64,000 nt of DNA from an uncultured Bryobacter sp. (GTDB lineage: Bacteria; Acidobacteriota; Terriglobia; Bryobacterales; Bryobacteraceae): the NCBI GenBank assembly GCA_964387685.1, contig CAYLXK010000024.1, positions 7,149 to 71,148 on the forward strand, given 5' to 3'. The notes under the pieces are model-generated. The model worked only from the letters and a program-made list of their open reading frames with translations. It made no database searches and was not told the DNA's origin. The translations under genes were made by a program, and so were the position numbers. This document shows positions 10,529 through 58,007 of the stretch, piece by piece. The stretch's first letter is position 1. Each line of letters starts with the position of its first letter.

Positions 10529-10732
10529 TTAGGCGCGCATCACGTTTTCGGCCATCAGTCCTTTAGGGCCTTGCTTGACCTCAAACTCGACATCGACGCC
10601 TTCGTCGAGCGAACGGTATCCGTTCATGCTAATCGCCGAGAAATGCACAAATACATCCTCGCCCGTGGAACGCTGTATGAAGCCGAAGCCCTTGGCGTTG
10701 TTGAACCACTTCACTTTACCTTTTTCTTTCAC
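10529..10732 (-). CDS. Cold-shock protein (CspA family)
   Basis: [17 protein letters not shown]...DVFVHFSAI carries the RNP1/RNP2 motifs. GTG start at 10732 lies 7-8 nt downstream of AGGAGA and gives the canonical 67 aa. The longer ORF to 10822 has no csp-like sequence. Confidence 0.9.
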
Positions 10733-10859
10733 TTCTGATTCTCCTGACTGCGCGGCTACTCTTGGGAGGGGAGTGCCGCCAAAACTTCGCTTGATTCTCT
10801 CAAACTCTTTTTTTCTACGCAATAAAAAATTGCATCAATATTTGTAAGGCTAATGAGTT

Positions 10860-11528
10860 TCAATCTTTCTCGATGGCGATGAAATAGCGAAATGAGGGAA
10901 AATGCCATTCGATGGTAGCGCGGGGCAGGTAGCCCGCCGCTCGAAGAAGGCATTTTAATTCCGGGCGCGTCCATCCTGCGGCCACGCTTAGCATCCCGTC
11001 GGAAACCGTCATCGGATGCCACCCCAGCAGCCAGCGCGTCAGGGGTAGGAACCAGTAAGAAAGTGGATGCCGATGTAAGTCCTGAATCAGCACCAGGCGA
11101 CGCGCCACGCGATGCATTTCCAACAGCAGTTCCCGGCAGGCTTCATCGGAAAAGTGATGCAAAAATAACGAGCAATGCACCACGTCGCAGGAACGGTCCG
11201 CAAAGGGCAGCCGAAAGGCGTCCGCCGCAATTTTCGGCGCGTCGGCTTCTCGCAGGTGGTCCGGGTTGAGATCGAGCACCATAGCCCGCGCCTCGGGAAA
11301 GCGTTGGCCCACACTACGGGACAAATCCCCAGAGGCCCCGCCCACGTCCAGAAATGAAAAGCCGGCCGAGGCGGGGAAGTACCCGGCCAGCAAGCTTCCC
11401 AGCTTCCAGCGTGCGCCCGTCCAGGAGTTGATGCGGCGGATATCCCTTAGATTCCGGGCCACTTCCTCAGCCGGGGCAGACGCCAAGGCTTCGGTGCTAA
11501 GTCTTCGGGTACGCAAACTCCTGATCAT
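10860..11528 (-). CDS. Class I SAM-dependent methyltransferase
   Basis: Motif [12 protein letters not shown]. Motif post-I MVLDLNP. FLHHF region. Confidence 0.75.
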
Positions 11529-36283: not shown

Positions 36284-38554
36284 ATGAGCTCCGAAGGCGA
36301 GAGGCGGCACCGCTGGCGAATGCGCGTCAGGGGGGTGGTGCAGGGAGTGGGATTCCGGCCTTTCGTGGCGCGGCTTGCGGGGGAACTCGGGCTGGATGGC
36401 TGGGTGCGCAATCGGACCGGGGCGGTGGACCTAGAGGTGGAGGGAAGTCTTGCGGCACTGCGGCGCTTTCAGGAACGGATGGAGGAGGAAGCACCGCCGG
36501 CGGCCACGATTGAGCATGTGGAGAGGGAGGACTGCAGCGTCACAGGAGCGCCGGGCTTTCAGATTGGCTCGAGCCTGGAAGGCGAGAGCCAGAGTGGCGG
36601 CCTGCCGGCGGACTTGTCGATGTGCGAGGAGTGCCGGCGAGAGCTGGGCGATCCAGGGGATCGCCGTTACGGTTATGCGTTTTTGAACTGCACGGCGTGT
36701 GGGCCGCGTTATTCGATTGTGCGGGCCTTGCCCTATGACCGTGTGCGCACTTCGATGGACGTGTTTCCGCTTTGCCCGCGGTGCCGGGAGGAGTATGAAG
36801 ACCCCCGGGATCGGCGCTACCATGCGGAGCCGATCGCTTGCCCGCAATGTGGTCCGCAACTGGAGTATGCCGGAACAGTGGAAAAGTCAGCAGGGACGGC
36901 GGTTGAACTGGCGGCGGAGGCGCTGCGGGCGGGCCAAACGGGAGCGATCCAAGGAATTGGCGGCTTTCATCTCGCGGTGAATGCGCGCGACGGAGCGGCG
37001 GTGGGACGGTTGCGGGAGCGCAAAGGGCGGGGCGAACAGCCTTTGGCTTTGATGGTGCGTGATCTGGCGACGGCGAGGGAGTTTGTGGAGCTGGATGAGC
37101 AGGCGGTGGGACTGCTAAAGGCGTCGAGTGCGCCGATTGTCCTGTTGCCCAAGAGGGGGCTGACGCAGGTGGGGGAGGCTCTGGCGCCGGGGAACGGGTA
37201 CCTGGGCGTGTTGCTTCCGTATAGCCCGATGCACTGGCTGCTGCTGCATCAGGAGGAAGACCTGGATGCCTTGGTGATGACGTCTGGCAATCGGCATGGG
37301 GAGCCGATGGCCACGAGTAGGCAGGAGGCGAGGGAGAAGCTGGGGGCGTTGGCGGATTTTTTTCTCACGCATAACCGGGAGATTGTGGCGGCGGCGGACG
37401 ACTCTGTGGTGCGGCTGTATCGAGGGAGGGCGCTGGCGATCCGGCGGGGGCGGGGATATACCCCGCTGATGTTGCAGATTCCGGTGGAAGGGGGAACGGT
37501 GGTAGCGGCGGGGGCGGAACTGAAGGCGGCGGTGGGAGTGGCGAAAGGAGAGCGGGTGTGGCTGGGGCCGCACTTAGGGGATGTGGAGAATTTGGCGACC
37601 TTGGAGGCATTGGAGAAGAATGTGAATCACCTGAGCGGCTTGTTTCGGGTGGAGGCCGAAGCGGTGGTGCACGATGCGCATCCGGGCTACCTGTCGACGG
37701 AATGGGCCCAGCGCTATGCGGCCAAGAGGGGAATTGTGGCTTGGGGGGTGCAGCATCACCGGGCGCATGTTGCTTCCGTGCTGGCGGAGTATGGCGTGGG
37801 GCCGGAGGAGCGAGTGGTGGCGGCGGTCTTTGATGGGACGGGCTATGGGGACGACGGCGCGATCTGGGGTGGGGAGTTCTTTTGTGGACCGGTGGCGGCG
37901 CTGAAACGGCGAAGGCATTTGCCCTATGTGCTGCTGCCCGGGGGCGATGGGAGTGCCAGAAGGCCCGCGCTGGCCGCGGTGGCGCACTTGGCGGCGTGCG
38001 GAATCGACTGGGAGGATACGGCGGCCGGGCGAGGGCTGGGGGCGGTGGAGAAGAGTTTGCTTGCGCGGCAGATGGAGCGGGGATTCCATTGTCATGCCAC
38101 GTCGAGTATGGGAAGACTGTTCGATGCGGCGGCGAGCCTGCTGGGGGTGCGGCAGCGGATTCGGTACGAGGCGCAAGCGGCCATCGAGATGGAGGCCCGC
38201 GCGGCGGCCTGGGGCAGGGAGGAGAGCTACGGGGCGGGGTTGTGGCGACTGGACGAACTGTGGCGGGAGTTGTTGGACGATGGAGCGGAAATAGAAGCGC
38301 GGGCGCGGCGCTTTGGGGGATGCGTGACGCGCTGGACGATGGAGACTGTGACGAATTTGTGTGCCGGGGAGGGATCGGAGACGGTGGTGCTGGCGGGCGG
38401 GGTATTTCAGAACGTGTTGCTGCTGCAGGAGCTAACGCGAAAGCTGGAAATGGCGGGATTGCGGGTATTAGTGCCGCGCTGGTTGCCGCCCAACGATGGA
38501 GGTCTGGCGCTAGGTCAGTTGTACCTGGCGGCAACCCAGTGCGGGCCACGCTAA
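36284..38554 (+). CDS. hypF: [NiFe] hydrogenase maturation carbamoyltransferase HypF
   Basis: Acylphosphatase RVRGVVQGVGFRPFV. Two zinc-finger pairs CxxC-x18-CxxC (CEEC...CTAC; CPRC...CPQC). YrdC-like and Kae1-like regions. ATG 36320 is an alternative start. Confidence 0.9.
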   Translation: MSSEGERRHRWRMRVRGVVQGVGFRPFVARLAGELGLDGWVRNRTGAVDLEVEGSLAALRRFQERMEEEAPPAATIEHVEREDCSVTGAPGFQIGSSLEGESQSGGLPADLSMCEECRRELGDPGDRRYGYAFLNCTACGPRYSIVRALPYDRVRTSMDVFPLCPRCREEYEDPRDRRYHAEPIACPQCGPQLEYAGTVEKSAGTAVELAAEALRAGQTGAIQGIGGFHLAVNARDGAAVGRLRERKGRGEQPLALMVRDLATAREFVELDEQAVGLLKASSAPIVLLPKRGLTQVGEALAPGNGYLGVLLPYSPMHWLLLHQEEDLDALVMTSGNRHGEPMATSRQEAREKLGALADFFLTHNREIVAAADDSVVRLYRGRALAIRRGRGYTPLMLQIPVEGGTVVAAGAELKAAVGVAKGERVWLGPHLGDVENLATLEALEKNVNHLSGLFRVEAEAVVHDAHPGYLSTEWAQRYAAKRGIVAWGVQHHRAHVASVLAEYGVGPEERVVAAVFDGTGYGDDGAIWGGEFFCGPVAALKRRRHLPYVLLPGGDGSARRPALAAVAHLAACGIDWEDTAAGRGLGAVEKSLLARQMERGFHCHATSSMGRLFDAAASLLGVRQRIRYEAQAAIEMEARAAAWGREESYGAGLWRLDELWRELLDDGAEIEARARRFGGCVTRWTMETVTNLCAGEGSETVVLAGGVFQNVLLLQELTRKLEMAGLRVLVPRWLPPNDGGLALGQLYLAATQCGPR

Positions 38555-53392: not shown

Positions 53393-53539
53393 AGCCAGCG
53401 CCGTAGGGGGAAAGTTCGCTCCGAAAGAGCAAGGCAGGGTTCGAAGTGGGGTCGTGATGGCTGCGACACGCAATCGTCATTCGATCGTGATGCCGGAATG
53501 TTACTTTCTGGAGACCTTTGGAATTCTCCAGGAGCTAAG

Positions 53540-54727
53540 ATGCGAAATACAGAAAAGATAGTAGTACTGGCCTTGTTTGCCGGCGCAATGGCCCAGGCCC
53601 AGGAAGCCGATCTGAAGCCGGGTAAGTGGAAAACCCTCGACGGCAACGCGCCGCTCGTGATTGGACACCGCGGGGCAAGCGGTTATTTGCCGGAGCACAC
53701 GCTCGAGGCTTACCGCCGCGCGATTGAACTGGGCGCGGACTTCATCGAGCCCGATCTCGTAATTACTAAGGACGGGGTATTGATTGCGCGCCACGAGCCG
53801 CTGCTGGACGGCACGACGGACGTGGCTTCGCGTTCGGAGTTCGCGAGCAAAAAAACGACCAAGCTGCTGGACGGCATTCCGACGCCGGGATTCTACGCAA
53901 GCGACTTCACGCTGGCGGAAATTAAGCGGCTGCGCGCCGTTCAACCCAATGGGGCGCGCTCGAAGGCCTTCGACGGACTGTATGAAATCCCCACCTTCGA
54001 TGAGATCCTCGACATGGTGCAGCGCCAACGCTATGCGACGCGCCGCACGATTGGCGTGTATCCGGAAACCAAGCATCCCAGCTTCCACTACGCGCTTGGC
54101 TTGCCGCTCGAGGATGAATTGGTCCGCCTGCTGGAGAAATACGGTCTGAACTTTAAGGGTGCGCCGGTGTTTATCCAGTCCTTTGAGACGGCGAATCTGG
54201 TTTACTTACGCCAACGCACCAAGGTGCGCCTGGTACAACTAATCGACGCCGACGACGTGGGTCCGGACGGTAAGTTAACTTACGCGAAGCCCTACGATAA
54301 GCCCTATAACTACGCGATCACGGGGGACCCGCGCGGCTTTGCGGATCTGGTGACGGCGGCGAGCTTGGCCGACATTGCCAAGTATGCCGACGGCATCGGT
54401 CCCTGGAAGCGCTACATCGTGAGCGTGAAGATTGTCGACGCCAACAACGACGGACGGGCCGACGACGTCAATGGCGATGGCAGCGTGAACGACGCCGATA
54501 AGCCGACCACGACGCCCACGAATCTGATCACCCTGGCCCATCAAGCGGGCCTGTTGGTGCACGCCTACACCTTCCGGAACGAAAAGAACACGCTCGGCGC
54601 CGACTATCGCACCGACCCGCGCAACGAATACATTCAGTTCTTCCTGCTCGGCGTGGACGGAGTCTTTTCCGACTTCCCGGATACGGGTGTAGCGGGACGC
54701 GCAGCCGCCGCCGGCATGCTGCCCTAA
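53540..54727 (+). CDS. Glycerophosphodiester phosphodiesterase (GlpQ-like), secreted
   Basis: PLVIGHRGASGYLPEHTLEAY, IEPDLV and YPETKHP. Signal MRNTEKIVVLALFAGAMAQA. Confidence 0.85.
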   Translation: MRNTEKIVVLALFAGAMAQAQEADLKPGKWKTLDGNAPLVIGHRGASGYLPEHTLEAYRRAIELGADFIEPDLVITKDGVLIARHEPLLDGTTDVASRSEFASKKTTKLLDGIPTPGFYASDFTLAEIKRLRAVQPNGARSKAFDGLYEIPTFDEILDMVQRQRYATRRTIGVYPETKHPSFHYALGLPLEDELVRLLEKYGLNFKGAPVFIQSFETANLVYLRQRTKVRLVQLIDADDVGPDGKLTYAKPYDKPYNYAITGDPRGFADLVTAASLADIAKYADGIGPWKRYIVSVKIVDANNDGRADDVNGDGSVNDADKPTTTPTNLITLAHQAGLLVHAYTFRNEKNTLGADYRTDPRNEYIQFFLLGVDGVFSDFPDTGVAGRAAAAGMLP

Positions 54728-54753: not shown

Positions 54754-54809
54754 GGGCCCCTTCTCATCCGGCTGAGTGCAGGCCCGGTGAAAAGGGGCCC
54801 TTTTCGTTT
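54754..54809 (+). terminator. Intrinsic terminator candidate after the GDPD gene
   Basis: GGGCCCCTT...AAGGGGCCC (with inner GGCCC-N9-GGGCC) followed by TTTTCGTTT. Confidence 0.45.
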
Positions 54810-54823
54810 GGGCGCGGGCTGCC

Positions 54824-54982
54824 CTACCAGGCGGCGACGCTGCCGTCGGGGTGGAAGACGCGGGCCATCGAACTTGTATTTGGCGACTTGTTTTTCGTCG
54901 AGGTCGAAGCCGAGGCGGGGCTTGGTGGGAAGCGGATATTTGCCGTTGACCATGCGCATGGCGGGGAAGCCGAACGATTCGG
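54824..54982 (-). pseudogene. Frameshifted relic of the 3' end of the enolase-superfamily gene at 55642-56976
   Basis: About 158 bp near-identical to 55643-55814, apart from a 14-nt deletion that shifts the frame and a few substitutions. It encodes ...FGFPAMRMVNGKYPLPTKP-LGFDLDEKQVAKYKF... / ...MARVFHPDGSVAAW split across two frames. Confidence 0.75.
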
Positions 54983-55083
54983 GGGTGAAGGGCATTTGCA
55001 CAGCAGTGCGCCGTTGGCCGTAGCGATCGCTACGGGCCGAGACAAAACGAGGCATCATCACTTATCTTGGGCTTTACCCACGA

Positions 55084-55464
55084 TCACTTTACTGGCATGC
55101 AGAAGTACAGAGTGTTCCCGTCTGGATCAGTCACCGCGAATTCCCGAAGGCCCCATGTTTGATCCAGTGGCGCCGTGTGAATAGGAGACTCAGGTCGCTG
55201 TGTCGTGTCTAGGCCCCGCGTGCGAAAGGTCGCAAAACGCTCATCAACGTCATCCACAAACATTCGGTTGACCGAACCGAAAACGCCGTCGCCCGAATGG
55301 CTGGAAAGCTGTATTTCAGCGCCGTCTCGAACCAGACCAATCACTCCGCTGGCCATCTCTCGATCTTCGTATCCGGGCCATTTGCGCTCGAAGTCAAGAA
55401 ATCCTGTGTAGAAGTGTAAGGATCTTTCCAAATTGCTCGATTTGATCACCGGTACAATCTTCAT
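55084..55464 (-). CDS. Glyoxalase/bleomycin-resistance (VOC) family protein, Ble-like
   Basis: VPVIKSSNLERSLHFYTGFLDFERKW ... QTWGLREFAVTDPDGNTLYF parallels the Sh ble / Tn5 Ble pattern (VPVLTARDV..FW...LGF ; QPWGREFALRDPAGNCVHF). Visibly more AT-rich than its flanks. Confidence 0.75.
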   Translation of the reverse strand: MKIVPVIKSSNLERSLHFYTGFLDFERKWPGYEDREMASGVIGLVRDGAEIQLSSHSGDGVFGSVNRMFVDDVDERFATFRTRGLDTTQRPESPIHTAPLDQTWGLREFAVTDPDGNTLYFCMPVK

Positions 55465-55641
55465 GACTGAAGTCCTCAGCCAATTAGGATACTCTCTCGT
55501 CACCATAAATCGCCGCAGGCTGCGGGATGACTCGTGTGAAGTCGCAGAGTTTAGAGTTATCGAAATCGATACCCGAGAAATCTGCGAGGGACAGATTGGC
55601 CGAATGGTTGGTTCCGGTTGGAGTAAGCGATCGGTGTGAAG

Positions 55642-56976
55642 TTACCAGGCGGCGACGCTGCCATCGGGGTGGAAGACGCGGGCCATCGGGCGCGTGCCCT
55701 CGAACTTGTATTTGGCGACTTGTTTTTCGTCGAGGTCGAAGCCGAGGCCGGGCTTGGTGGGAAGCGGATACTTGCCGTTGACCATGCGCATGGCCGGGAA
55801 GCCGAACCATTCGGCCCAGATCTTCTCCTTCACGCCGGCGTCGACGCCGGAGCAGATTTCCTGGACGAGGAAATTCGGCATGGCGGCATCGACATGAACG
55901 CTGGCCAGGGCGCCGATGGGGCCTTCGCAGGCGTGGGGGGCGACCTTTACGCCCGAGGCGTCGCAGAGCGCGCCAATCTTCCACAGGGCCGTAATGCCCC
56001 CGCAGTGGTTGATGTCCGTTTGGATGATGTCGACGATGCCGAGCTCGACAAGCTCGCGGCAGTTGTAGCTGGCGACGAGGCGTTCGCCCGTGGCAATCGG
56101 CACCTTGGTGCGTTTGGCGATGCGCTGCATGGCCTTGACGTTCTCGGGCGGGCAGGGCTCTTCGATGAAGAGGAGCTTGAAGGGCTCCATTTCGCGGCAG
56201 AGGATGCTGGCGACGGCGGGGGAGGTCTTGGCGTGGAAGTCGATGCCGATGTCGATGTCGTCGCCTAAATTGACGCGCAGGGTTTCGACATGCTTGACGG
56301 CGCGGGAGATGGCCGAGTGCGTCTCGATCCATTCGTAATATCCCGGGATGCCGCCCTTGATGGCCGTGACGCCGAGCTCCTTGGCCTTGGCGCGAACTTC
56401 GCGCATTTGCTCGGGCGTATTGGCGCGGACGTGATAATAGCCGCGGACCCCGGCGGGATCGTAGGGGCCGCCGAGCAGCTTGTAAACGGGTTGGTTCAGG
56501 ATTTTGCCGCGGATATCCCAAAGCGCCTGATCGATGGCGGCCATGGCGGAGCCAATGACGGGCCCCGCGCGGTAGAAGCTATGCACGTACATGGATTGCC
56601 AGTGGTGCTCCACCGGCATGGGGTCGGCTCCAATGAGCAATTCCTTGAAATCCTCGATGCAGGAAAGCGTCGCGGCGGCTTTGCCCTCCAGAGTGCCTTC
56701 GCCCCAGCCGTAGACGCCCTGGTTGGTTTCTATTTTGACGAAGACATAAGGCCGGTCGGCTTGTTCCGGAGTAGGCAGGGTGACGCCAAAAGTCTTGATC
56801 GCCGTGATGCGGAAGTTGGAGCCGAGGGGATAGAGCGCCGCGGCGCCTAAGGGGCCGGTGGCCGCGCGGTTGGGATCGTTTTGGGGGGATTGCGGCGCGA
56901 GCGCGCAAGCGCAGCCGAGGCCCGCGTTAATCGAGAAAAAGTCGCGGCGGTTGAGGGGTTTCAGAGGGGATTTCAT
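55642..56976 (-). CDS. Enolase-superfamily dehydratase (galactonate/mannonate dehydratase-like) with Tat-type signal
   Basis: GVYGWGEGTLEG, AIDQALWDIRGK, IDFH, FIEEP and ERL motifs. N-terminus MKSPLKPLNRRDFFSINAGLGCACALA. Confidence 0.85.
   Translation of the reverse strand: MKSPLKPLNRRDFFSINAGLGCACALAPQSPQNDPNRAATGPLGAAALYPLGSNFRITAIKTFGVTLPTPEQADRPYVFVKIETNQGVYGWGEGTLEGKAAATLSCIEDFKELLIGADPMPVEHHWQSMYVHSFYRAGPVIGSAMAAIDQALWDIRGKILNQPVYKLLGGPYDPAGVRGYYHVRANTPEQMREVRAKAKELGVTAIKGGIPGYYEWIETHSAISRAVKHVETLRVNLGDDIDIGIDFHAKTSPAVASILCREMEPFKLLFIEEPCPPENVKAMQRIAKRTKVPIATGERLVASYNCRELVELGIVDIIQTDINHCGGITALWKIGALCDASGVKVAPHACEGPIGALASVHVDAAMPNFLVQEICSGVDAGVKEKIWAEWFGFPAMRMVNGKYPLPTKPGLGFDLDEKQVAKYKFEGTRPMARVFHPDGSVAAW
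55643..55814. repeat. Direct-repeat partner (intact copy) of 54825-54982
   Basis: TACCAGGCGGCGACGCTGCC(A/G)TCGGGGTGGAAGACGCGGGCCATCG...GCCGAAC(C/G)ATTCGG. The copies are spaced about 818 bp apart. Confidence 0.85.
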
Positions 56977-58007
56977 TGAGCGCTTCTCCGGACCAGAGTT
57001 TCGTTGATTTGGAGGCCAAGGCCGGGTTTGGTGTTAAGCGTGAAGTAGCCGTCGGTGGGTGTTTCGATCGCGCCGCCGACAAGCTGGTCGCGGAATTGGC
57101 GCGTCTCGCGGTCGAGAACAGCGGGGACCTCCTGGATGAAGAAATTGGGCAGGCTAGCGGCCAAGTGGAGCGCGGCGGCGGTGGCCACGGGGCCGCCCGT
57201 ATGGTGGGGGGCAATCGCCGTGTAGTAGGTTTCGGCAATGGCTGCGGCGCGACGGAGCGGCGTAATGCCGAGGCGATTAACGCTCAGGCGAAGGATGTCG
57301 CAGATGCCGTCGCGAAGATAATTCTGCGCGGGCGCGAAATCGTTCAGGTCATGCCCAAGGCCCAGGGGTGTGGTGGATTCGGCGGCGATGCGGGCCAGCA
57401 CTTCCTCATTCGGTTCGCGCGTGGGCCGGTCAAACCAAAGAGGATGGTAAGGTTCGAGGGCCACGACAAGATCGGCCGCCTCGGCGGAGGGCAAGAGGGC
57501 TTGGCCATCGGGGGCGAAGTCTACATTTTGGCCGGAGGATTGGCGCAGGCTGGCGAACTGAGCGGCCGCGCGGCTTACGATGTTGGGCCGGGATGTAATC
57601 CCTGTGGGCAGCTGGATTGGCACCAGAAAGGCGCGGTGGCCTTGCGCGAGTAGGGCCTCGCGGTCCTCCAGGCGGGGCAGGGGAGTGAGGGCGCGGACCT
57701 TAAAGCGAGTAGGTCCGCCGAGCAGTTGGAAAACCGGTGCCTTCGCCTCCTGGCCATAGAGGTCGAGCAAGGCCATGTTCAGGGCCGCCGCGATGGGCTC
57801 ACCGGCAAGGTGCCGGGTGAGTACGTCGTAGCGCGACGGCTCCTGGCCCACGGCCATCGAGCGGGCCCGCGCGAGCGAAGCGGGGGACACCGCAGTGGCT
57901 TCGCCCCAACCGCTGAGGCCTTGGTCTGTGCTGACTTTGAGTAGCGTGTAGGTGCGCGCGGAACGCGGTTCCTGCAGCGCGAAAACTTCAAGCTGGGTGA
58001 TTTTCAT
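56973..58007 (-). CDS. Mandelate racemase/muconate lactonizing enzyme-family protein
   Basis: MKITQLEVFAL...LLKVSTDQGLSGWGEA and ALLDLYGQEAKAPVFQLLGG. ATGA overlap with the downstream paralogue. Confidence 0.75.
   Translation of the reverse strand: MKITQLEVFALQEPRSARTYTLLKVSTDQGLSGWGEATAVSPASLARARSMAVGQEPSRYDVLTRHLAGEPIAAALNMALLDLYGQEAKAPVFQLLGGPTRFKVRALTPLPRLEDREALLAQGHRAFLVPIQLPTGITSRPNIVSRAAAQFASLRQSSGQNVDFAPDGQALLPSAEAADLVVALEPYHPLWFDRPTREPNEEVLARIAAESTTPLGLGHDLNDFAPAQNYLRDGICDILRLSVNRLGITPLRRAAAIAETYYTAIAPHHTGGPVATAAALHLAASLPNFFIQEVPAVLDRETRQFRDQLVGGAIETPTDGYFTLNTKPGLGLQINETLVRRSAQ

Follow-up and report, generated by a model that had tools for sequence, protein, structure and literature searches.

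A VOC-superfamily gene between two copies of a dehydratase gene end in an uncultured Bryobacter sp.

Layout of the dehydratase locus

We analysed a window of 64,000 nucleotides from an uncultured Bryobacter sp. of the Acidobacteriota (GenBank assembly GCA_964387685.1, contig CAYLXK010000024.1, positions 7,149 to 71,148 of the forward strand). The window is located on a 79-kb contig, C24, of a 5.4-Mb metagenome-assembled genome in 42 contigs (G000). In it, the 3′ end of DH1, a dehydratase gene of the enolase superfamily, is present twice, and a gene of the VOC superfamily is located between the two copies. Below, this arrangement is called the scar, the segment between the copies the insert, and the downstream copy the relic. 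The features of the locus are listed in window coordinates.

53498..54727, plus strand: glycerophosphodiester phosphodiesterase (GDPD) gene, convergent on the relic (open reading frame (ORF), Pfam)
54754..54800, plus strand: GC-rich hairpin with TTTTCGTTT after it, which forms the terminator of the GDPD gene (inverted repeat I3)
54824..54982, minus strand: repeat copy 2, the DH1 3′ end as a relic with a TAG stop of its own (alignment)
54983..55083, minus strand: insert tail, 101 nt, which holds a palindrome
55084..55464, minus strand: VOC-superfamily gene, 126 aa (PF00903, PF19581), the sole cargo
55465..55641, minus strand: spacer, 177 nt, from the DH1 stop to the VOC start, GC 0.51, part of the insert
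55643..55814, minus strand: repeat copy 1, final 172 nt of DH1 (alignment)
55642..56976, minus strand: DH1, galactonate-dehydratase-family (enolase superfamily) gene, 444 aa (ORF, Pfam, NCBIfam)
56973..58007, minus strand: DH2, upstream enolase-superfamily paralogue with an ATGA overlap with DH1 (ORF, Pfam)

Local alignment pairs positions 54825-54982 with 55643-55814. The pair has 153 matched and 5 mismatched positions, and the first-named copy has one gap of 14 nt. A repeat search agrees with the local alignment; it reports the blocks D1 and D3, spaced 832 and 818 apart. Genome-wide, the downstream copy (E = 7.8e-62) is the sole other full-length match. The match is far beyond chance. A preliminary description of this DNA, made from the sequence alone, had reported that about 170 bp of the dehydratase gene end recur 818 bp away. 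Alignment of the 54.8-55.9 kb region recovered the same repeat pair, and the coordinates are exact.

The boundaries of the two copies are sharp. The homology starts at the same codon, E386, in both. At the other end, the preliminary description had included the stop codon in the repeat. This holds for the TA of the stop, which is common to both copies; the last base differs, with TAA in the dehydratase gene and TAG in the relic. The gene ends with ...HPDGSVAAW-TAA and the relic with ...SVAAW-TAG. Past the two stops, the sequences are unrelated from the first base. Since each copy has its own in-frame stop followed by unrelated DNA, they look like two alternative gene ends and not like a mechanical copy with an arbitrary end. 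The junction has only about 6 nt in common with the gene.

The differences between the copies are concentrated on one side. The relic contains a frameshifting 14-nt deletion near 54867-54871, with CGA microhomology at its flanks. The five substitutions (gene/relic) are G/C, G/C, G/A, G/C and T/C. Two of them change W to S and G to R in the relic, both at residues without variation across 12 orthologues. The remaining three are synonymous and are located at sites that vary among relatives. The frameshift and the changes at invariant residues indicate that the downstream copy is the one without selection. It is decaying, and the upstream copy completes an intact dehydratase gene of 444 aa. The frameshifted relic and the preserved dehydratase had both been recognized in the preliminary description. 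A template and variable repeat pair of a diversity-generating retroelement was rejected, since the differences are not adenine-specific and no reverse transcriptase ORF is found in the surrounding 7 kb.

DH1 contains the MR_MLE_N and MR_MLE_C domains in Pfam and scores 345 bits against the NCBIfam model for galactonate dehydratase, NF010624 (cut-off 311). Orthologues with 79-92% amino acid identity are found in ten congeners and also in metagenomes. The DH2-DH1 gene pair is conserved throughout the order. DH1 has an N-terminal twin-arginine-like signal (NRRDFF), which is kept in its orthologues; DH2 is without it.

Downstream of DH1, a GAGGA motif resembling a Shine-Dalgarno sequence is located 8 nt ahead of the VOC ATG. 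A promoter and terminator scan of the insert found no promoter-like site before the VOC gene and no terminator-like site between DH1 and the VOC gene. This suggests that the VOC gene is probably expressed by read-through from the dehydratase operon. The insert tail holds an 18-nt perfect palindrome, CCGTAGCGATCGCTACGG, at 55018-55035. It forms a hairpin without a U-tract (z = -2.6). A repeated palindrome of the HIP1-like or REP-like (repetitive extragenic palindromic) type was rejected because the core, GTAGCGATCGCTAC, has only one occurrence in the genome. A pentapeptide-repeat relic in the 177-nt spacer was also rejected; the Pfam match (E = 0.016) falls short of the cut-off and has no tblastn support. 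No homologue of the spacer was detected. The terminator of the GDPD gene is located 24 nt beyond the stop of the relic.

Composition of the insert and the VOC protein

The insert, 54983-55642, is 660 bp long. Its GC content is 0.529 compared to 0.605 for the genome, which corresponds to the 1.5th percentile of 660-bp windows. The GC content at third codon positions (GC3) is 0.56 in the VOC gene and 0.74-0.83 in the neighboring genes. The insert is foreign by composition. Both measurements had been suggested in the preliminary description, and they bear out its statement that the segment between the copies is AT-rich. The VOC ORF is the only credible gene between the copies, on which the ORF list and Pfam agree with that description. 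The insert occurs once in its own genome.

The ORF list and the repeat search show neither an integrase or transposase nor a tRNA-type att site or inverted-repeat ends at the insert. PF00589 has no match anywhere on contig C24, and there is none to Rfam. The absence of mobility genes and att or inverted-repeat ends noticed earlier is therefore real. The whole genome contains five tyrosine recombinase genes, none of them on C24. An integron cassette is not supported, since the contig has no integrase, Rfam gives no match and the hairpin lacks the R''/L''-L'/R' layout, with no dedicated attC model having been run.

Two other repeat pairs in the genome were observed. A tyrosine recombinase gene on contig C16 (G000:C16:36318-36842) adjoins a 62-bp direct repeat pair (37046-37105 / 53412-53473). 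These repeats are 87% identical and 16.4 kb apart. This arrangement looks like a classical island with its own integrase and contrasts with the dehydratase scar. On contig C22, a perfect 60-bp direct repeat (G000:C22:78253-78312 / 80325-80384) brackets 2 kb of DNA with a lower GC content, 0.548 against 0.61-0.64. The bracketed DNA holds a HigB/HigA-like pair and an ORF of 394 aa.

The VOC family is widespread in Terriglobales, including Edaphobacter, Terracidiphilus and Sulfotelmatobacter, at 75-87% amino acid identity. Within the genus, the gene is found in 3 of 19 genomes, in a differing context each time. Among VOC loci from 80 GTDB genomes and two congeners, DNA homology ends at the ends of the coding sequence and reaches 83% identity at best. 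In G016 and GCA_049309705.1, the homologue belongs to a Pkinase-VOC-DUF4256-MR_MLE-beta-lactamase locus, whose enolase-superfamily gene is not the one found here. This locus was rejected as a conserved home of the VOC gene, as it is not kept in the Bryobacter sp. genome, and thus offers no vacated site. In genome G001, the homologue (71% identical; L024, G001:C61:20827-21201) immediately follows an ArsM-like methyltransferase gene and has an ArsC-like phosphatase gene close by; the two neighbors were named by eye from their sequences. This context hints at a link of the VOC family to the handling of arsenic or other toxicants.

The VOC protein is above the Pfam gathering thresholds for PF00903 (34.7 vs 20.6 bits) and PF19581 (30.5 vs 23.6 bits). 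Its best sequence relatives of solved structure are Sh-Ble (1XRK, E = 1.5e-5, full length), the uncharacterised VOC protein 4HC5, and ZbmA. An AlphaFold model was obtained with a predicted local distance difference test (pLDDT) score of 79.5 and a predicted template modelling (pTM) score of 0.75. Its template modelling (TM) scores to 1BYL, 2ZHP, 1XRK and 5CJ3 are 0.63-0.69. Ble, ZbmA, TnmS and TioX, Vibrio integron-cassette VOC proteins, glyoxalases and uncharacterised VOC proteins are equally good fold matches.

The preliminary description had compared the N- and C-terminal motifs of the protein with those of Ble-type bleomycin-binding proteins. Ble-type proteins (Sh-Ble 1BYL/1XRK, BLMA 1QTO, Tn5 Ble 1ECS) together with ZbmA, TnmS1/S3, TioX and MRD are similar to it in size (~125 aa) and VOC fold. 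The alignment with Ble is full-length, and the two have in common an N-terminal V-P-V-x motif and a C-terminal W-G-x-R-E-F-A-x-x-D-P-x-G-N motif. The motif parallels stand. However, identity is only 22-26%, and 4HC5 and the Vibrio integron-cassette VOC proteins 3EY7 and 3EY8 match equally well. The protein scores 32.4 bits against NCBIfam NF033156 (BLMA), whose cut-off is 140, and 26.6 bits against NF000489 (Ble-Sh), whose cut-off is 260. There is a genuine but distant likeness to Ble, far short of the curated family cut-offs. This two-module VOC protein most resembles the antibiotic-sequestering Ble, ZbmA and TnmS as well as uncharacterised cassette VOC proteins. It is predicted to work as a small ligand-binding or catalytic VOC module.

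Relatives of the locus and further scars

The search for an empty site covered 40 relatives, 8 extended loci and 80 metagenome contigs with a relative of the dehydratase. The DNA past the dehydratase stop differs in each of eight congeners, in which 0.5-8 kb were examined, and in the 80 metagenome loci. In the closest relatives, homology to the Bryobacter sp. genome ends within 1-2 nt of the dehydratase stop. The congeners carry a single copy of the dehydratase gene end, and a second copy is found only in the Bryobacter sp. genome.

The other flank is also variable. The GDPD gene is located between the hyp genes and the relic, and no orthologue of it (E <= 1e-60) is found in 18 congeners. This suggests that the GDPD flank, which borders the hydrogenase cluster, is accessory DNA as well. 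The dehydratase gene sits at the edge of a hypervariable region, so the direction of the event is not readable from relatives. The relic may have come with the GDPD-side block instead of being displaced by the VOC insert.

Two relatives showed other changes at the dehydratase. In G001, only the last 91 codons of the gene are found (L042, G001:C17:66607-66992), cut by an IS3-family element at the contig end. The orfA of this element begins MSETRRKFTRDFKVAAVKRL. An intact dehydratase orthologue was not found in G001. Its match was rejected as a second gene-end copy, as it comes from the dehydratase gene that the IS3-type element has truncated. In G006, a 118-aa fragment of the PF00589 integrase family (E = 2.6e-6) is located at about 10634-10990 of locus L033 on contig C35. 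It is 3.0-3.4 kb downstream of the dehydratase stop, in a gene-poor stretch. No second copy of the dehydratase gene end is present anywhere in the G006 genome.

Comparison of the Bryobacter sp. genome with itself revealed three more duplications of gene 3′ ends, in unrelated genes.

G000 C1:413082-415413: DUF1501-type gene, repeat 130/132, insert 2.07 kb
G000 C3:355889-357207: cysK, repeat 109/113 plus a 1-nt indel, insert 1.09 kb with GC 0.549
G000 C10:92702-98036: thioredoxin gene, repeat 101/113, insert 5.1 kb

In all three, both copies end in an in-frame stop. The stops are at times different, with GCG-TAG in one copy and GCC-TGA in the other, or TAG and TAA. The DNA after the stops is unrelated, and the cargo consists of ordinary genes without mobility domains. 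The DNA of lower GC content is always located between the repeats. At cysK, the upstream neighbor is kept in 13 congeners, which have nothing downstream in common.

The same design is observed independently in a distant lineage, at the orthologous dehydratase gene (67% identical) of two metagenome loci, L069 and L096. The last 126-132 nt of the gene are duplicated there.

L069:1786-2646 (metagenome contig Ga0315285_10069102): second copy 0.6 kb downstream, with a HicB-like antitoxin gene between
L096:1430-3744 (Ga0315282_10043967): second copy 2.1 kb downstream, with HicB-like, DUF2924-like and DUF4258-like genes between

No recombinase is found at L069 or L096, nor at the three other scars of the genome. 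L069 and L096 have both junctions and cargo in common, at 85% identity, which indicates that the event predates their split. The copies within each genome are 95.2% and 94.4% alike, compared to 90.5% and 92.1% for the orthologous copies between L069 and L096. That the copies within a genome are closer than the orthologous ones points to gene conversion between the repeats. Such conversion indicates that host recombination acts on repeats of this kind.

Origin of the scar

The explanation that we favor, at slightly better than an even chance, is that the scar is an ‘insertion with long target duplication’ that entered by host homologous recombination and not by a dedicated integrase. The incoming fragment would have held a dehydratase gene end of ~170 nt, up to its stop, and behind it the 660-bp foreign segment with the VOC gene. 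It would have entered through the dehydratase segment. One route would be a Campbell-type single crossover between the circularised fragment and the chromosome. The other would be a one-ended invasion from a break at codon 386, which would have copied the donor gene end and the cargo before end joining to the other end of the break, as in the family of homology-facilitated illegitimate recombination (HFIR). Ku is encoded in the genome, and end joining is therefore available. The incoming gene end would now complete the dehydratase. The resident end would have been pushed 818 bp downstream, where it lost selection and decays.

Insertions with long target duplications of variable length (46-423 bp) and without mobility genes have been described in many bacteria, with restriction-modification units as cargo (Furuta, Abe & Kobayashi 2010, NAR, PMC2853133). 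The class is traced to Nobusato et al. 2000 (as cited in PMC2853133). It was defined by a direct repeat of >30 bp that is otherwise unique, an insert of <20 kb, the absence of a mobility gene and an empty site in a relative (PMC2853133). The dehydratase scar is a real case of this already described kind of insertion scar. Its insert is short, its direct repeat of unique target DNA measures 158 and 172 bp and is found just twice in the genome, integrase and transposase are lacking, and the insert is unlike the genome in GC content. Some of the published repeats overlap a gene 3′ end, as is the case here (PMC2853133). The scar also differs from the published class. The cargo is a VOC gene in place of restriction-modification genes, and no relative has the same flanks, whereas the published cases have an empty site in a sister strain. 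Because structure defines the class, the first of these differences concerns only the cargo. In addition, the duplication lies wholly within the coding end, with the stop codon as its limit.

Laboratory experiments provide a precedent. Of 60 E. coli recombinants obtained with a substrate that had one homologous segment, 56 carried duplications of 109-950 bp (Amarir-Bouhram et al. 2011, PMC3240628). These were formed by a single crossover between the chromosome and a partly degraded, re-circularised molecule, and 4 products were of the classical HFIR type (PMC3240628). HFIR itself was described by de Vries & Wackernagel 2002 and Prudhomme et al. 2002 (as cited in PMC3240628). The product has the same homology-cargo-homology order as the scar, and host recombination and one homologous segment suffice. 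Unlike those events, which used a designed plasmid substrate, the scar is natural. Classical HFIR usually deletes recipient DNA; here the DNA is duplicated.

Displacement of gene ends is known from other loci. In T6SS (type VI secretion system) and Rhs arrays, HFIR was proposed to displace old 3′ ends (Kirchberger et al. 2017, PMC5361080). C-terminal displacement with orphan modules occurs in Rhs, contact-dependent inhibition (CDI) and T6SS loci (PMC5361080; Jackson et al. 2009 as cited there). Similar to the dehydratase scar, the new 3′ module enters via upstream homology and the old end is left downstream as an orphan. However, the new end in those systems is a different toxin tip that changes function. 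In the scar, the new end is 97% identical, the gene is preserved and the cargo is placed after it.

Several observations weigh against the favored explanation. Because every relative differs downstream of the dehydratase, no empty site was found; the VOC or GDPD gene is behind the dehydratase in none of the 40 relatives and none of the 80 metagenome contigs. The search for a donor gave a similar result. The translated flanks of the insert match nothing, an exact-protein look-up of the VOC protein returned no match, and neither the dehydratase end nor the insert flanks are present in the VOC loci of 80 genomes. The two copies are 97% alike, compared to at most 87% for the nearest sampled species. 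This suggests that the donor was conspecific, or that conversion homogenised the copies afterwards, as it did in L069 and L096. Furthermore, the model alone does not account for the homology stopping at the stop codon in all four scars. Speculatively, this boundary would follow if the ends came from genomes with only coding homology in common and underwent conversion afterwards. Alternatively, a hotspot border might have been eroded repeatedly to a limit set by selection. An integrase acting in trans is a further possibility. The preliminary description had viewed the locus as an acquisition coupled to duplication of the gene end. The foreign insert, the presence of the VOC gene in 3 of 19 genomes, the recurrence and the published class speak for this view; the empty site that would complete it was not found.

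Site-specific elements produce a similar layout. Phage 21 and e14 are integrated at icd in E. coli, where ~165 nt of the 3′ end are duplicated, the copy of the element completes the gene and the displaced copy is a pseudogene fragment. These elements are 15-40 kb long and have their own integrase beside the att site. Elements of the cis-mobilizable (CIME) type are integrase-less. The scar could accordingly be a remnant or trans-mobilised derivative of an integrative element whose attP carries the replacement 3′ end, with the integrase deleted or located elsewhere. The architecture is identical: the gene is completed by the copy on the element side, and the native end lies displaced on the far side. 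Homology that ends at the stop is expected if selection keeps only the coding part of the copy borne by attP. In L069 and L096, other cargo has taken the same gene end, and the integrase fragment of G006 is found 3 kb past the dehydratase stop. However, the insert is only 660 bp long, no recombinase is present in or beside any of the six scars, and just five tyrosine recombinases are encoded in the genome, all of them away from C24. Four unrelated genes are affected, with repeats of 113-172 bp and ordinary chromosomal genes as cargo. The VOC gene is at the dehydratase site in no other genome searched, and G006 has no second gene-end copy. We consider this origin unlikely.

In a second alternative, the polarity is reversed. 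The VOC gene would have been resident first, and a terminator-GDPD block would have come in, anchored by homology further left and with its ragged end in the dehydratase gene of the donor. The relic would then be a passenger that was never functional. In its favor, the GDPD gene lacks an orthologue in the 18 congeners, which marks its flank as acquired, and the DNA downstream of the relic is contiguous with the GDPD terminator. Classical HFIR suffices in this case, with no duplication step (PMC3240628). The composition argues otherwise. The GDPD block is host-like (GC 0.596, GC3 0.74) and the VOC insert is strongly atypical, which makes the VOC insert look like the younger arrival. The other three scars all carry the lower-GC DNA between their repeats. 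Moreover, the end of the donor fragment must fall inside the very gene that adjoins in the recipient. This order of events is doubtful, and we regard it as quite improbable.

An in-situ tandem duplication of the gene end and the DNA downstream of it, with one copy later lost or replaced and no coupled foreign DNA, would explain why the copies are 97% alike and the sampled relatives reach at most 87%. However, it would have repeated the downstream DNA too, yet the sequences after the stops are unrelated from the first base. The copies also have different stop codons, and the composition of the insert is foreign. Such a duplication is very unlikely. A chimeric join of two strain variants during assembly, conceivable in a metagenome-assembled genome of 42 contigs, is scarcely credible, as the copies are diverged and located inside a 79-kb contig, the ~6-nt junction overlap is too short for a k-mer misjoin, a frameshift and changed invariant residues are unexpected in a live strain variant, and the same design is found in independent assemblies from two samples (L069 and L096).

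The favored insertion by host recombination might be one step of a larger process. In such a self-perpetuating cassette cycle without a recombinase, the cargo would travel with a portable gene end, loop out with it as a circle when the two copies recombine and re-enter the orthologous gene of another cell by a single RecA crossover, and selection would trim the portable copy to the stop. We consider this extension improbable as well. If true, it could be a main route by which integrase-poor lineages such as these Acidobacteria gain small genes at the borders of conserved genes.

The scar provides a clean, datable case in which a genome with very few integrases gains one accessory gene while the adjacent conserved gene is undamaged. 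The VOC gene belongs to a large, highly conserved acidobacterial family, whose nearest characterised relatives sequester DNA-damaging antibiotics. The repeat boundary coincides repeatedly with the stop codon, a feature for which published models do not account. Insertions of this kind are perhaps not confined to the restriction-modification genes of competent pathogens. In Acidobacteria, genes may regularly be gained at the edges of conserved blocks through homology-driven insertion with long duplication.

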